Below are positions 33,035-37,211 of a stretch of DNA of 64,000 nt, piece by piece. Position numbers and translations under genes: made by a program. Origin of the DNA: an uncultured Bacteroidota bacterium (GTDB taxonomy: Bacteria > Bacteroidota > Bacteroidia > Bacteroidales > P3); NCBI GenBank assembly GCA_902777005.1, contig CACYSB010000003.1, positions 10,614 to 74,613 of the forward strand, read 5' to 3'. The notes under the pieces are model-generated. The model made no database searches. It was given only the letters and a program-made list of their open reading frames with translations, and was not told the origin of the DNA. Numbering within the stretch: position 1 is the stretch's first letter; each line of letters begins with the position of its first letter.

Positions 33035-34575
33035 CCATACTGCTGCTTTTGTTACTGCCGCTCTCCCTACAGGGGCAATATAAAGTGACGCATCTCGAGA
33101 AGCCCATCAACACCACGGGCAGCGAGACAGGGGCTGTGCGCGTGGGCGACACGGTGCTTGCCTACAGCACCATGCCGCCAGAAGTCGGGGGCAACAAGAT
33201 GTTCGGCTTCAGCAGTGCACAGATGCAGGTGTGGCAGGCCCGCATAGCACGCAGCGGCAAGCTGGCGCGGCCGAAGCCGAACCGCTGGGGGCTCAACACC
33301 CGGCGCGAGCACACCGGCAACCTTGCCCTCGACCCCTACACCAATGACCTCTACTTCACGCGCTGCCGCGTGGGTGACCCCGACCTGCGGTGCGAGATAT
33401 TTTGGGCAAAGAAACAGCGACGCGGCTGGAGCAAACCGCAGCCCTTGCGCGGCAAGGTGAACACAGACAACTACACGGCCACCCACCCCGCCGTGGGACG
33501 GCTGGCTGACAGCACGGTGATACTCTACTTCGTCAGCGACCGCGAAGGGGGCATGGGCGGCATGGATATATGGTACACACTGGTGAAGAACGGCGTGGCG
33601 GGCGAGTGCGTAAACCTCGGTCCGCAGGTCAACAGCCCTGCCGACGAGATAACCCCCTACTACGACCAAGTGAACGGCGTGCTATACTTCAGCAGCGACC
33701 GCACGGGCGGAAAAGGCGGCCACGACATCTACTGCGCCGTGGGCCAGCGCAACACCTGGCAGAAAGCCGAAGCCGTGTGCCAATGCATCAACAGCGAGCA
33801 GAACGACATTTACTTCACCATCAGCCAGCGCGACTCCGCCACCGGCATACCCGTCAGCGGATACCTCAGCAGCAACCGCGCCGACAGCTACTTCCTCAAC
33901 GACTCCATGTGCTGCAACGACATCTACCAGTGGCAACTGGATAGCACCATGCTGCCCTCCAGAGATACCGTCGTCGCCATCGATACCACAACTCCTAACT
34001 CAGAACTCACAACTCATAATTCAGAACTCAAAACTCAGAACTCCTTCATGTTCCCCCTGTTCCTCTACTTCCACAACGACGAACCAGACCCCATGAGCCG
34101 GCAGGCCACGACGGCGACGAGCTATCAGGAGTGCCAGCGGCGCTATGCACAGCTGCGCGGCGAGTACCTAAGCCATCAGACCTCGGCCATCGACTCGGCC
34201 ATGATGCAGCTGTTCTTCGACACCTGCGTGGTGGGCAACTACGAGCGCGTGGAGGCCCTGTTCGACTATGTCGAGGAGCAGCTCGACGAAGGCCACCGCG
34301 TGGTGCTGACCATCGCCGGCTATGCCTCGCCGGTCTTCCAGAGCGAATACAACCAGCTGCTTTCGGAGCGAAGGATTGCCTCCTTCGTCAACATGCTGCG
34401 CGCCTGGCGCGGCGGCATGTTCGCCGACGCCATGGACGACGGTCGCCTCACCATCGTGCAGAAGCCCCATGGTGCCGTTGCGCCCACTACCGAAAGCCTC
34501 TCCAAAGACCCCGTCTACGGCCTTCCCGCCGCCATCTCCCGCAGGATAGAAGTGCTCTCCTGCGAGGTGAAGTAG
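33019..34575 (+). CDS. OmpA-family protein with TolB/PD40-like repeats
   Basis: Start at MPHLLTILLL (signal peptide). Has repeated Y(F/Y)(T/S)SDR blocks. The C-terminal OmpA-like region is TIAGYASPVFQSEYNQLLSERRIASF. Confidence 0.7.
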   Translation: MPHLLTILLLLLLPLSLQGQYKVTHLEKPINTTGSETGAVRVGDTVLAYSTMPPEVGGNKMFGFSSAQMQVWQARIARSGKLARPKPNRWGLNTRREHTGNLALDPYTNDLYFTRCRVGDPDLRCEIFWAKKQRRGWSKPQPLRGKVNTDNYTATHPAVGRLADSTVILYFVSDREGGMGGMDIWYTLVKNGVAGECVNLGPQVNSPADEITPYYDQVNGVLYFSSDRTGGKGGHDIYCAVGQRNTWQKAEAVCQCINSEQNDIYFTISQRDSATGIPVSGYLSSNRADSYFLNDSMCCNDIYQWQLDSTMLPSRDTVVAIDTTTPNSELTTHNSELKTQNSFMFPLFLYFHNDEPDPMSRQATTATSYQECQRRYAQLRGEYLSHQTSAIDSAMMQLFFDTCVVGNYERVEALFDYVEEQLDEGHRVVLTIAGYASPVFQSEYNQLLSERRIASFVNMLRAWRGGMFADAMDDGRLTIVQKPHGAVAPTTESLSKDPVYGLPAAISRRIEVLSCEVK

Positions 34576-34605
34576 AAAATATTTTGCCCATATAAAAAAA
34601 CTTTG

Positions 34606-34613
34606 TATCTTTG
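34606..34613 (+). promoter_or_regulatory. -7 promoter box (TATCTTTG) driving the islet leader
   Basis: TAnnTTTG match, about 285 nt upstream of the methyltransferase ATG. Confidence 0.5.
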
Positions 34614-34619
34614 CACTCC

Positions 34620-34865
34620 GAAAGACATAGGCTTATCGAGAGTGGATAAGCCATATAATATTAACAAAGCATTACTATTATTTCGCGTGACCGAAAAACC
34701 CGGCAAAGTTTCACGGAGATAAACACGATTAATAATAGTGAGGTTCCGATTAGGAATCTGTAATATCATAGTAGAATGCTCGCTTTATGTGAGCTTCTTA
34801 GGATATTACAGGTCTCCTTGCCGGGTTGCCTGGGTCCGCGAATAAGAAGCTCTCTTCTTTTTCGC
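34620..34865 (+). ncRNA. highly structured leader or ncRNA of unknown class
   Basis: Hand-found helices: 34630-37/34645-52 (8 bp); 34674-82/34731-39 (9 bp) plus 34686-89/34724-27; 34758-67/34802-11 (10 bp) plus 34752-55/34815-18; 34774-83/34889-97-type inner hairpin at 34774-83/34789-97. A 10-bp pseudoknot pairs 34697-34706 with 34818-34827. The terminal hairpin is 34838-34865. Confidence 0.4.
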
Positions 34866-34898
34866 ACGATTGATAGCAATGCACAAAAGTTATCAATC

Positions 34899-35981
34899 AT
34901 GCCTGACAATGTAAATCTTCACGCAGCAATGCGTGCAAAAAAAGATGAGTTCTATACTCAACTTGTAGATATAGAAAACGAGCTGAAACACTACCGAGAA
35001 CACTTTCGGGGTAAGACGGTGCTATGCAACTGCGACGACCCTCGCGTCAGCAATTTCTTCCACTATTTTAGTTATAACTTTGAGCAGTTGGGTTTAAAGA
35101 AACTTATCACTACCTGCTACAAGAACCAAGAACGAGACCTATTTAGCCAGCATGATTCTGAACGTGCTATTTTGCTCGAATACACAGGCGACCACAACGG
35201 CAACCGTATACCTGATCCTGAAGAAATAGGCATCAATTATCTACAGGGCGATGGTGACTTCCGTTCCGCTGAATGTATAGAACTGCTAAAGCAGGCTGAC
35301 ATCATTGTCACGAACCCGCCATTCTCATTGTTCCGAGAATATGTTGCACAACTTATTGAATACAATAAAAGATTTGTCATTATTGGCAATCAGAATGCCA
35401 TAACAAATAAAGACTTCTTTCCTTTAATAAGAGACAATAAGGTATGGATGGGTGCAAGTATTCATAGCGGAGATAGAGAGTTTGGTGTACCCGACGATTA
35501 CCCACTTAATGCTGCAGGATGGAGGCAAGATGAAAAAGGCAATAAGTTTATTAGAGTAAAAGGTGTTCGTTGGTTCACAAATCTTGATTACAAAGAAAGA
35601 CATGAAGATTTAATACTTTACAAAAACTATTCTCTAGAAGAGTATCCAAAATACGACAACTATGATGCAATAAATGTCAATAAGACATCAGATATTCCAA
35701 TGGATTATTATGGTGCAATGGGAGTACCTATCACTTTTATGGACAAATATAACCCTGAGCAATTCGAAATCATCGGAATATGTGCCGGGAATAGCAGACT
35801 GAACAAGTTTTACGGAGATATTACATATACACCTCATCCCGAAGACAGAGGCGGTTGTGCAGTATTAAATGGACAGCGTGTATATAGCCGCATCCTTATC
35901 CGACGTCGACGCCGAACAATTCCCTATACCGTAGGCGATGAGAATCCACTGCCAATAGCTGCAGAAACAGATAATAATTAA
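34899..35981 (+). CDS. EcoRI-methylase-family N6-adenine DNA methyltransferase
   Basis: KKDEFYTQLVDIENEL...VLCNCDDPRVSNFFHYF...IIVTNPPFSLF (NPPF). Start at ATG 34899, because the track start at 34776 lies inside the structured leader. Confidence 0.8.
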   Translation: MPDNVNLHAAMRAKKDEFYTQLVDIENELKHYREHFRGKTVLCNCDDPRVSNFFHYFSYNFEQLGLKKLITTCYKNQERDLFSQHDSERAILLEYTGDHNGNRIPDPEEIGINYLQGDGDFRSAECIELLKQADIIVTNPPFSLFREYVAQLIEYNKRFVIIGNQNAITNKDFFPLIRDNKVWMGASIHSGDREFGVPDDYPLNAAGWRQDEKGNKFIRVKGVRWFTNLDYKERHEDLILYKNYSLEEYPKYDNYDAINVNKTSDIPMDYYGAMGVPITFMDKYNPEQFEIIGICAGNSRLNKFYGDITYTPHPEDRGGCAVLNGQRVYSRILIRRRRRTIPYTVGDENPLPIAAETDNN

Positions 35982-35985
35982 AACC

Positions 35986-37068
35986 ATGGAGATAAAACTA
36001 CACCAAATAAAGGTCCGCGACCTTGTGAAAGACTACTGCGACAATGCAGAAAACGGCGTCCGTGCCTATAGCGGACAACTCGACGTGCGCCCACCATACC
36101 AACGCGAGTTTGTATACAAAGACAAGCAACGCGACGCCGTGATTGAGACCCTCACGCAGGGATTTCCTCTCAATGTGATGTACTGGGCAGTGCGCGAAGA
36201 CGGCACCTATGAGATTATCGATGGCCAACAGCGCACCATCAGCATCTGCCAGTATGTGACGGGCGACTTTGCCTATATGTTTCGCTACTTCCACAACCTC
36301 GCCGACGACGAGCAGCAGCAGATACTCGATTACGAGTTGCAGGTGTATCTATGCTCTGGCACCGACAGCGAAAAGCTAAGGTGGTTCAAGACAATTAACA
36401 TCGCCGGCGAGGAATTGACCGACCAGGAACTGCGCAACGCCGTCTATGCAGGTAGCTGGCTGGCCGACGCCAAGCGTTACTTCAGCAAAGGCAATTGTGC
36501 CGCCTACAACATGGCCAGCAAGTATGTGAGCGGTGAGGTGAACCGTCAGGCTTACCTCGAGACTGCTATTCGCTGGATTAGTGAGGGTAACATAGAGACC
36601 TATATGGCAAAGCATCAGCACGACGCTGGCGCCGTGGCGCTATGGAACCACTTTAGCAATGTCATCAGTTGGGTAAAGGCCATATTCCCAAAATACCGCA
36701 AAGAGATGAAAGGTGTTGACTGGGGTACGCTGTACCGTCTACACCATGACAGAGATCTCGATGCACAGAAACTGGAGACTGAAGTAGGACGTCTCATGCA
36801 AGATAGCGACGTGCAGCGCAAACGTGGCATCTACGAGTATGTACTCGATTATGACGAGAGGCACCTCGACCTACGAGCTTTCGATGACAACACTAAAAGA
36901 GAAGTCTATGAACGGCAACTTGGTATTTGCCCTGTATGTGGAAAACATTTCGCCATCGAGCATATGGAGGCAGACCATATCACCCCATGGTGTCAAGGTG
37001 GCCGTACAACAGCTGATAACTGCCAAATGCTTTGCAAAGAGTGTAATAGACGCAAGTCGGGCAAATAG
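35986..37068 (+). CDS. DUF262 (ParB-like NTPase/nuclease) protein with C-terminal HNH endonuclease
   Basis: PPYQREFVY and IIDGQQRTISI are DUF262 motifs. CPVCG...ADHITPW...NCQMLCKECNRRKSG is the HNH domain. Confidence 0.8.
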   Translation: MEIKLHQIKVRDLVKDYCDNAENGVRAYSGQLDVRPPYQREFVYKDKQRDAVIETLTQGFPLNVMYWAVREDGTYEIIDGQQRTISICQYVTGDFAYMFRYFHNLADDEQQQILDYELQVYLCSGTDSEKLRWFKTINIAGEELTDQELRNAVYAGSWLADAKRYFSKGNCAAYNMASKYVSGEVNRQAYLETAIRWISEGNIETYMAKHQHDAGAVALWNHFSNVISWVKAIFPKYRKEMKGVDWGTLYRLHHDRDLDAQKLETEVGRLMQDSDVQRKRGIYEYVLDYDERHLDLRAFDDNTKREVYERQLGICPVCGKHFAIEHMEADHITPWCQGGRTTADNCQMLCKECNRRKSGK

Positions 37069-37138
37069 ACGATTGCCCGAAGTGTTAAAGTTTAGTTAAA
37101 AAAGGCTCTTCCGCCCGGAAGGGCCTTATATTATATAT

Positions 37139-37172
37139 GCGCCGCTTTTCTTGTGGGGAGGAAAAGCGGCGC
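37139..37172. terminator. bidirectional hairpin terminator
   Basis: Perfect 12-bp stem GCGCCGCTTTTC / GAAAAGCGGCGC with a 10-nt loop, between convergent genes. Confidence 0.6.
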
Positions 37173-37211
37173 GAGGGTTCTTTGAAATGCTGAGAAGATT
37201 GGTCAAATAAG

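Follow-up and report, generated by a model that had tools for sequence, protein, structure and literature searches.

A covarying leader RNA with two mutually exclusive pairings precedes restriction-modification operons in Bacteroidales

Introduction

What is encoded in the 323-nt gap in front of a DNA methyltransferase gene of an uncultured Bacteroidales bacterium, and could it control the genes that follow? The gap lies in a stretch of 64,000 nucleotides (assembly GCA_902777005.1, contig CACYSB010000003.1, positions 10,614 to 74,613), referred to here as the window; all coordinates are window positions, and the features described lie on the + strand. A sequence-only reading had proposed that positions 34614-34898 form a pseudoknotted leader or non-coding RNA of about 250 nt and of unknown class. 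Our analysis bears out the structured leader and its lack of a known class: a promoter lies upstream, the element ends 0-8 nt before the ATG in aligned members, its helices covary strongly, and no Rfam family matches it. This stretch is very probably a cis-regulatory structured RNA, and it represents a leader family that is large, structured, apparently undescribed and located 5' of restriction-modification (R-M) operons in Bacteroidales. To our knowledge, R-M systems have so far been described as controlled by controller proteins, methyltransferase autorepression or antisense RNA. We propose, at a probability of roughly 0.6, a model in which the leader chooses between two folds and thereby gates a weak terminator and the start codon of the R-M operon.

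Results

The leader belongs to a Bacteroidales family under selection for RNA pairing

Folded as RNA, positions 34614-34898 reach a minimum free energy (MFE) of -100.2 kcal/mol, compared with -62.3 +/- 5.0 kcal/mol for 200 dinucleotide shuffles (z = -7.55, with 0 of the 200 as good); together with the covariation described below, this rules out a chance structure. Homologues were collected with the methyltransferase as query and one genome per species, which gave 80 loci from many phyla, most of them with an adjoining nuclease gene. With iterated nhmmer searches, 35 of these 80 loci proved to carry the leader before the methyltransferase ATG, and all 35 are labelled Bacteroidales or unclassified. 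The R-M operon of the window is known from many phyla, whereas the leader family was found only in Bacteroidales. A metagenome scan with the invariant 5' block of the leader added at least 120 loci, mostly from rumen and gut; among the matches listed, the leader profile confirmed about 115 of 120. The homologous upstream regions, whose comparison the sequence-only reading had proposed, display both conservation and covariation.

In the MFE structure, the helices are nested in the order P1, P2 and P2b, which enclose two small hairpins, P3 and H4; a terminator-like hairpin and a start-codon-proximal hairpin follow. P1 pairs UUCGCG-U-GACC (34682-34692) with 34833-34842, as seen in both the MFE and the consensus. 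P2 pairs AACCCGGCAA (34697-34706) with 34818-34827, and P2b pairs GGAGAU (34715-20) with 34812-17. The P2b combination GGAGAU/GUCUCC becomes GGAAAU/GGUUUCC in other members. P3 is formed by CUGUAAUAUC and GAUAUUACAG (34758-67 / 34802-11) and encloses H4, in which strand X (GCUCGC, 34778-83) pairs with strand Y (GUGAGC, 34789-94). P2 is the perfect 10-nt complement of the sequence-only reading, which had put its chance occurrence at a few percent, and the count agrees (about 2.9e4 10-mer pairs x 4^-10, or about 0.03). That reading had also taken this pairing to tie a pseudoknot between a hairpin loop and the 3' side of P3. The pairing itself is conserved and compensated; in the consensus fold it is nested (P1, P2, P3, H4) and not knotted.

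Covariation was scored on two MAFFT alignments, A2 with 35 sequences and A3 with 121 non-redundant sequences, which were used in place of a profile-HMM alignment (125 sequences) that lost register in P1 and in the long-range Y:X' pairing introduced below. On A3, 89.9% of cells in the consensus helices are paired, compared with 35-43% when partners are slid, and two-sided changes occupy 419 cells compared with 143 +/- 11 in shuffles. Across the 121 sequences, compensatory changes are found in six of the eight P1 pairs and in all eight P2 pairs, one of which occurs as CG:47, AU:43, GC:21 and UA:4. Cognate P2 arms form duplexes of -16.0 kcal/mol, compared with -7.1 kcal/mol for non-cognate arms. 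P3 is hypervariable and always paired, with 115 distinct arms in 121 sequences, a mean of 14 bp and 10% G-U pairs; its cognate arms reach -13.7 kcal/mol and arms from different members -6.2 kcal/mol. In H4, eight of nine pairs covary, many of them through G-U (UG:48, GU:31, UG:27), and the duplex energies are -13.9 kcal/mol for cognate and -10.8 kcal/mol for non-cognate strands. The start-codon hairpin has nearly invariant arms, with compensatory changes in 6 of 11 pairs and some U-G wobble, and appears in the MFE of 86 of the 121 members. The minus-strand RNA also folds well (z = -6.7), but the G-U pattern suits only the + strand: G-U pairs are frequent and A-C pairs rare in H4, Y:X', P3 and the start-codon hairpin, and therefore selection acts on the + strand RNA, and on neither DNA nor the minus strand. 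The largest subtype does contain a true pseudoknot, different from the one first proposed: UUCACGG in the interior is joined to CCGUGAA, located between the 3' arms of P2 and P1, with compensatory changes at two positions.

One strand has two conserved, mutually exclusive partners

In an unbiased scan for covarying helices, the top-ranked pairing lay outside the nested fold. It joins the Y side of H4 (GAGCUUCUUA, 34791-34800) to a downstream strand X' (UAAGAAGCUC, 34843-52), a perfect 10-nt complement in the window. The consensus strands are GGUGUGGGC for Y and GCCUGCACC for X', which lies about 80 nt downstream of Y and resembles X (GCUCGCACC). Compensatory changes affect seven of nine Y:X' pairs in A2 and eight of nine in A3, and the duplex energies (cognate -15.3, non-cognate -10.9 kcal/mol) are comparable to those of X:Y. 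In the family, a short hairpin (AGAAAGG-loop-CCUUUCU) stands before a U-run, and X' supplies both its loop and its inner stem. Y:X' therefore excludes both H4 and this terminator-like hairpin. One strand thus has two mutually exclusive conserved pairings (X:Y and Y:X', each with 8/9 pairs covarying), as three-structure attenuators do, and the X/Y/X' layout reads as anti-antiterminator, antiterminator and terminator, with Y:X' as the candidate antiterminator.

In the window, the terminator-like hairpin lies within 34838-34865 and consists of AAGAAG-CUCU-CUUCUU (34844-59) followed by UUU up to 34862. It is lengthened by GCGAA/UUCGC, where the 3' arm of P1 pairs with a downstream look-alike of the P1 5' arm. 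The start-codon-proximal hairpin follows, with arms GAUUGAUAGC and GUUAUCAAUC (34868-77 / 34889-98), and ends 1 nt before the AUG. The closed fold, with H4, P2, P1 and the start-codon hairpin, is the single-sequence MFE in about 70-76% of members, and Y:X' is the MFE in none. From this we infer a default state that is closed and attenuated; an effector or a pseudoknotted arrangement would be required for the alternative.

The 5' block (34668-34683; AGCAUUACUAUUAUUU in the window, AGCAUUAGCUAUUAUU in the family consensus) is the most invariant segment of the leader family in alignments A1-A3, and it is complementary to three sites: GAUGCU at the base of H4, the AAUAAUAG hairpin loop, and the UGAUAGC segment on the 5' side of the start-codon hairpin. 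Its pairings with GAUGCU and UGAUAGC are 90-98% paired with little variation. The pairing with the loop is the helix H2 of the sequence-only reading (34674-82 / 34731-39), whose 3' partner UAAUAAUAG sits in the loop of the small CAC/GUG hairpin (34724-40); it is the pairing that would cross P2, and this complementarity between the invariant block and the AAUAAUAG loop is conserved, with no informative variation. In L079, a member of a divergent clade, a change of the 5' block to AGCGUU is matched by AACGC.

The conserved structure, its two exclusive pairings and the link to R-M genes are observed; building on them, we propose a model in which the closed fold is the thermodynamic default: X:Y would be formed, the terminator-like and start-codon hairpins would form, and the operon would be attenuated. 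In the alternative fold, Y:X' would replace X:Y and thereby abolish the terminator-like hairpin, and the start-codon hairpin may lose its 5' arm to the invariant 5' block; read-through and translation would result. The 5' block is proposed as the strand that couples both decisions, and the choice between folds could be set by a small molecule, a host protein, the ribosome or no signal at all.

Several observations weigh against this model. In the main clade, the terminator-like hairpin is weak, with a median of about -4.6 kcal/mol and 6-7 bp that are mostly A-U; a lenient rule of hairpin plus U-run is passed by only 72 of the 121 members, and a generic terminator scan of the window did not report the hairpin. 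As an intrinsic terminator, the hairpin and U-run are convincing in the divergent clade and weak in the main clade. Because the hairpin is weak, control could be mainly translational or act via RNA stability. Y:X' crosses P1-P3, so the domain would have to unfold or a pseudoknot would have to form, which lies outside the energy models used. The pairings of the 5' block are near-invariant and are thus neither supported nor refuted by covariation. The first genes downstream are not all R-M genes, with 9 of 109 (8%) falling outside this category among the matches listed, and a rationale specific to R-M would have to allow for them. Finally, the leader-family members present in metatranscriptome assemblies (bovine and other gut samples) are low-depth, assembled contigs, one of which runs upstream of the predicted transcription start. 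These contigs show presence in RNA libraries and nothing more; one leader contig has a word depth of 35.6, compared with 3-9 for neighbouring coding contigs. An open reading frame (ORF) beginning MAEKKRTFRD on an RNA contig, first taken as a different downstream gene, is probably an EcoRI-type methyltransferase variant by comparison of N-termini.

Leaders of one family precede different DNA methyltransferases

The first downstream gene could be assigned at 109 metagenome loci among the matches listed, and about 90% of these genes encode DNA methyltransferases or R-M enzymes of at least five families. EcoRI-type methyltransferases account for 82 loci and HsdM-type genes for nine, six of them full-length (Pfam PF02384 was checked on one representative) and three N-terminal fragments assigned by resemblance. 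N6_N4 methyltransferases (PF01555) occupy three loci, C5 methyltransferases (PF00145) two, a 1615-aa Type ISP enzyme one, and probable methyltransferase-like proteins without a Pfam match three. Of the nine non-R-M loci, five belong to two lipoprotein operons; the other four encode a DUF2334 protein, a sulfatase-family protein, a GT2 glycosyltransferase and an 85-aa protein. At L103, L149, L196 and L097, the leader stands before a four-gene operon of signal-peptide and lipoprotein genes (211, ~272-289, 188 and ~351-383 aa) without Pfam matches. At L121, the leader precedes a lone GT2 glycosyltransferase gene, and a tRNA gene (L121:2347-2420) about 60 nt upstream of this leader hints at a small tRNA-adjacent islet.

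Methyltransferase genes of different families lie behind closely related leader subtypes, and similarity ends between the start-codon hairpin and the ATG. The leader is therefore a self-contained module, joined to different cassettes by recombination. Given that the enzymes served differ in specificity and fold, control via the DNA site or protein of any one enzyme is unlikely. The leader is also optional. Seven leaderless Bacteroidota copies with a gene-proximal promoter box carry the box 20-44 nt before the ATG, and we therefore consider the leader an optional insertion. At L004:1703-1811, L058:2582-2698, L125:8830-8891, L134:4539-4645 and L175 (oriented 1369-1482), either partial copies of its 5' part stand as far as about 1 kb before a full leader or the leader is interrupted; such copies may be left over from cassette exchange at the conserved 5' block.

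A divergent second clade occurs at four further loci (L025, L030, L055 from Alistipes and L079 from Porphyromonas), about 240-340 nt upstream of the methyltransferase ATG. Its 5' block reads AGCGUUUGCUAUUUAUUC and the X/Y/X' triple is present, the GAUUGAUAG start-codon hairpin is absent, and its hairpin and U-tract terminators are stronger than those of the main clade. Searches of plasmid and phage collections gave no blastn match to the leader. In viral contigs, eight matches to the start-codon-hairpin pattern were found, none of which fits the family profile, and we regard them as chance. A repeat or miniature transposable element within the window was rejected, since it holds no second copy.

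The operon and its leader form a low-GC islet

The gap that holds the element follows a PorE/OmpA-like outer-membrane gene ending at 34575. The methyltransferase gene (34899-35981) is the first gene of the operon and encodes an EcoRI-family N6-adenine DNA methyltransferase (Pfam PF13651, E = 9e-149; PADLOC MTase_II, 1e-129). The second gene begins 4 nt past it (35986-37068) and encodes a nuclease with DUF262 (GmrSD_N) and HNH domains (Pfam PF03235 and PF01844; PADLOC REase_II, 2e-134, full length). Methyltransferase and nuclease are neighbours, as expected of a Type II R-M system, and the pair is kept in most of the 80 loci from many phyla; the DUF262-HNH protein is the predicted cognate Type II restriction enzyme of the EcoRI-family methyltransferase. 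At five loci (L003, L034, L056, L071 and L049) the nuclease starts about 1 kb past the methyltransferase match, and an extra gene seems to lie between the two. At L007, from a Nitrosopumilus metagenome-assembled genome, a tandem heptamer array (CCAGACA)n reaches the expected methyltransferase start.

GC content is about 36-53% in the gap and both genes, compared with about 60% for the genome, and the genes flanking the islet are unrelated housekeeping genes. DNA contigs of other samples share the window only from ~34598 to ~37136 and diverge outside. Promoter, leader and R-M pair therefore make up one mobile islet, and the two positions look like its ends. Position ~34598 falls inside the promoter, and ~37136 lies at terminator hairpins (37102-37173). 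Pfam support between 34576 and 37172 is limited to the methyltransferase and the nuclease, and the islet contains no C gene or other regulator ORF. The small helix-turn-helix controller gene and C-box of C-protein R-M systems are thus missing, and the leader holds no conserved ORF. No recombinase gene adjoins the islet among the neighbouring genes.

The promoter is of Bacteroidetes type (34583-34613), with a -33 TTTG (34583-86), a 19-nt spacer and the -7 box TATCTTTG (34606-13). It predicts a transcription start near 34619 and a leader of about 280 nt. The TAnnTTTG box recurs at an equal relative position in homologous loci, and the sequence upstream of the promoter is unrelated between loci. 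The pattern TTTG-N17-21-TAnnTTTG has nine exact matches in the window (1036-60363), compared with 0.5 expected; these nine matches may help to annotate its transcription units.

All pairings named by the sequence-only reading are present in the window at the coordinates it gave: H1, H2, H3 (our P3), H4, the 10-nt helix, H5 (our terminator-like hairpin) and the TTGATA/TATCAA bracket. H1 is a 5'-proximal hairpin (34630-37 / 34645-52) with arms GGCUUAUC and GAUAAGCC and loop GAGAGUG. It is confined to the subgroup of the window and covaries in L013, L038 and L009 with the GAGAGU loop retained; the 5' part of the leader that holds it is variable and carries other hairpins or none elsewhere. In the junction region (34715-34758), hairpin Pb (34742-58) is found in the MFE and in constrained folds of 35 members. 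An internal loop within the P3 arm carries a conserved AUG (34776-78). Extension of the methyltransferase N-terminus from this ATG at 34776 was rejected, as the frame is open to the gene in the window only and out of frame or closed at other loci.

Discussion

The evidence presented here raises the question of what, if anything, selects between the two folds. A metabolite or ion riboswitch is a specific version of our two-fold model and not an exclusive alternative to it: P1, P2, the junction and P3 would form an aptamer, and a ligand such as SAM, SAH, a nucleotide or a stress signal would pick X:Y or Y:X'. The leader matches large riboswitches in size and complexity, its multi-helix junction has invariant unpaired nucleotides, a covarying pseudoknot is found in the main subtype, the 3' strand of P1 is common to the downstream hairpin, and five unrelated families of SAM-dependent DNA methyltransferases lie downstream. 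We nevertheless regard a riboswitch as doubtful. Searches with cmscan against Rfam 15 at the gathering threshold, RF00162 included, gave no relevant match in the window or 12 other loci. At E <= 10, the leaders of the window, L045 and L158 matched only histone 3' UTR, miRNA and snoRNA models by chance, and SAM, SAH or other riboswitch models remained unmatched. The resemblance to SAM-I that the sequence-only reading had mentioned, and itself doubted, does not survive: the core strings are not kept, GGCUUAUCGAGAG sits in the subgroup-only H1 and is missing from most members, and AAACCCGGCAA is P2, which varies freely with compensation. Moreover, the family was found in Bacteroidales alone although many phyla carry the operon, lipoprotein, GT2, DUF2334 and sulfatase-family genes are served as well, the junction architecture varies by subtype, which is unusual for a single ligand pocket, and SAM control of a co-transcribed methyltransferase-nuclease pair would seem to lack a clear physiological logic. 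Limitation to one bacterial order would suit a host-specific partner, such as an RNA-binding protein or a specialised NusG/UpxY-like elongation factor that binds the 5' block or H4 and makes the leader a protein-dependent attenuator. The 5' block and the arms of the start-codon hairpin are very highly conserved in sequence, which points to sequence-specific recognition, surface-structure and R-M genes resemble the accessory sets under such control, and leader-dependent NusG paralogues are established in Bacteroides capsule operons (PMC11685472). In the 5' block, GCAUUAGC is loosely like the GCGGUAGC / YGCGNAGCR ops hairpins (PMC11685472), a weak resemblance that is lost in the window itself (GCAUUAC). 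As ops-type elements need no ~230 nt of covarying RNA structure, and a partner gene that travels with the islet was not found, we consider such a protein-dependent attenuator unlikely.

It is also conceivable that the leader responds to no signal and acts as a constitutive dampener or timer, which keeps a self-toxic operon low or delayed and stabilises the mRNA, with the alternative pairings serving folding kinetics. R-M systems need low, balanced expression. This need, the prediction of the closed fold as ground state for most members, a 5' hairpin such as H1, which is typical of mRNA stabilisers, and the optional nature of the leader for the same operon would all fit; the strong compensatory evolution of a second, exclusive partner of Y is hard to explain without a functional alternative state and makes a signal-free dampener quite unlikely. 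Ribosomes could in principle supply the switch, as in trp or erm leaders and the Bacteroides tetQ leader: translation from the conserved AUG in X would melt H4 and free Y for X'. An AUG at the start of X is present in about 90% of members, and many ORFs of 8-12 codons stop just past Y. Overall, however, ORF length varies between 1 and 48 codons, all three frames occur relative to the gene, no peptide is conserved, and loop indels are not multiples of three. The AUG is part of GAUGCU, the complement of the invariant AGCAUU block, and is lost by compensatory change in L079 (AGCGUU/AACGC); its conservation is thus accounted for by the pairing of GAUGCU with the 5' block, and a leader-peptide attenuator is improbable. 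Finally, the inverted repeats could act in DNA as recombination or inversion sites (inverton- or attC-like) or as the conserved end of a mobile element. The islet is low in GC and mobile, one leader is joined to different cassettes at a junction just before the ATG, partial leader remnants exist, and P1 and P2 contain almost no G-U pairs. Against these stand the many G-U and few A-C pairs of H4, Y:X', P3 and the start-codon hairpin. The promoter is located upstream of P1, beyond the repeats, and not between them as in an inverton. Reverse-strand profile matches are weak and partial only, no inverted interior was seen among the loci compared, no recombinase gene is adjacent, and assembled contigs, which would miss rare variants anyway, contain no joints. 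A role at the level of DNA is accordingly very improbable, and a two-fold RNA that gates the R-M operon remains our preferred explanation.

A covarying cis leader common to Type I, Type II (m6A, m4/m6 and m5C) and Type ISP systems would be a different and portable solution to the control of R-M genes, and it would also constitute a new family of structured RNAs, with hundreds of representatives in the microbiomes of gut and rumen. A literature search on RNA control of R-M systems, RNA motifs near methyltransferase genes and the conserved 13-mer returned nothing relevant among the papers it covered, and restriction or methylase genes go unmentioned in the main text of a 224-motif survey. We tentatively raise the possibility that the leader is the first RNA sensor, of a riboswitch-like class, dedicated to bacterial immunity genes; as a portable element, it would tie the expression of many types of R-M system, and of some phage-relevant surface genes, to a cellular signal in Bacteroidales. 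This signal could be a metabolite (SAM, for example), a cue of stress or infection, or a host factor. If such sensing were true, R-M defence in the dominant gut order would be conditional and not constitutive, with a bearing on phage-host dynamics, gene transfer and the genetic tractability of Bacteroidales. For Bacteroides engineering, the leader provides a regulatory part of natural origin, and as a well-supported orphan RNA it lends itself to the discovery of a ligand or partner.

Given these features, the leader can be placed beside several known systems. Like SAM riboswitches (SAM-I, RF00162, and others), it lies 5' of SAM-using enzymes and has a multi-helix domain closed by P1 and shared with the expression platform; unlike them, it has no cmscan match at any threshold, carries its SAM-I-like string in the non-conserved H1, and precedes DNA methyltransferases and not genes of methionine or SAM metabolism. 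With the UpxY/opsX capsule-operon leaders, it has in common the Bacteroidales hosts, a long transcribed leader before accessory, phage-relevant operons and a short, highly conserved element (PMC11685472). The DNA/RNA pause element opsX spans about 40 bp, and its operon starts with the cognate Y gene (PMC11685472), whereas in the leader described here covarying RNA structure extends over about 230 nt and a NusG-like gene is absent. A parallel in layout exists with three-structure attenuators and riboswitch platforms (trp-type, PyrR-dependent pyr, T-box), in which one strand has two exclusive conserved partners, one partner overlaps a hairpin and U-run just 5' of the gene, and a large upstream structured domain holds the anti-antiterminator. 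In contrast to these, the leader shows no sequence or model similarity, its main-clade terminator is weak, its antiterminator strand lies deep in the domain, about 80 nt from its partner, and a second conserved hairpin abuts the start codon. Among R-M systems, known control relies on C proteins and their C-boxes, on autorepression by the methyltransferase at its promoter, and, in EcoRI, on antisense RNAs. The presumed purpose is alike, namely low or conditional expression of a self-toxic methyltransferase-nuclease pair on a mobile unit. The means differ, as control here would be exerted by a cis-acting folded leader RNA, in an islet with no C gene or regulator ORF, and one leader serves unrelated R-M types, so it is independent of the DNA specificity of any one enzyme.

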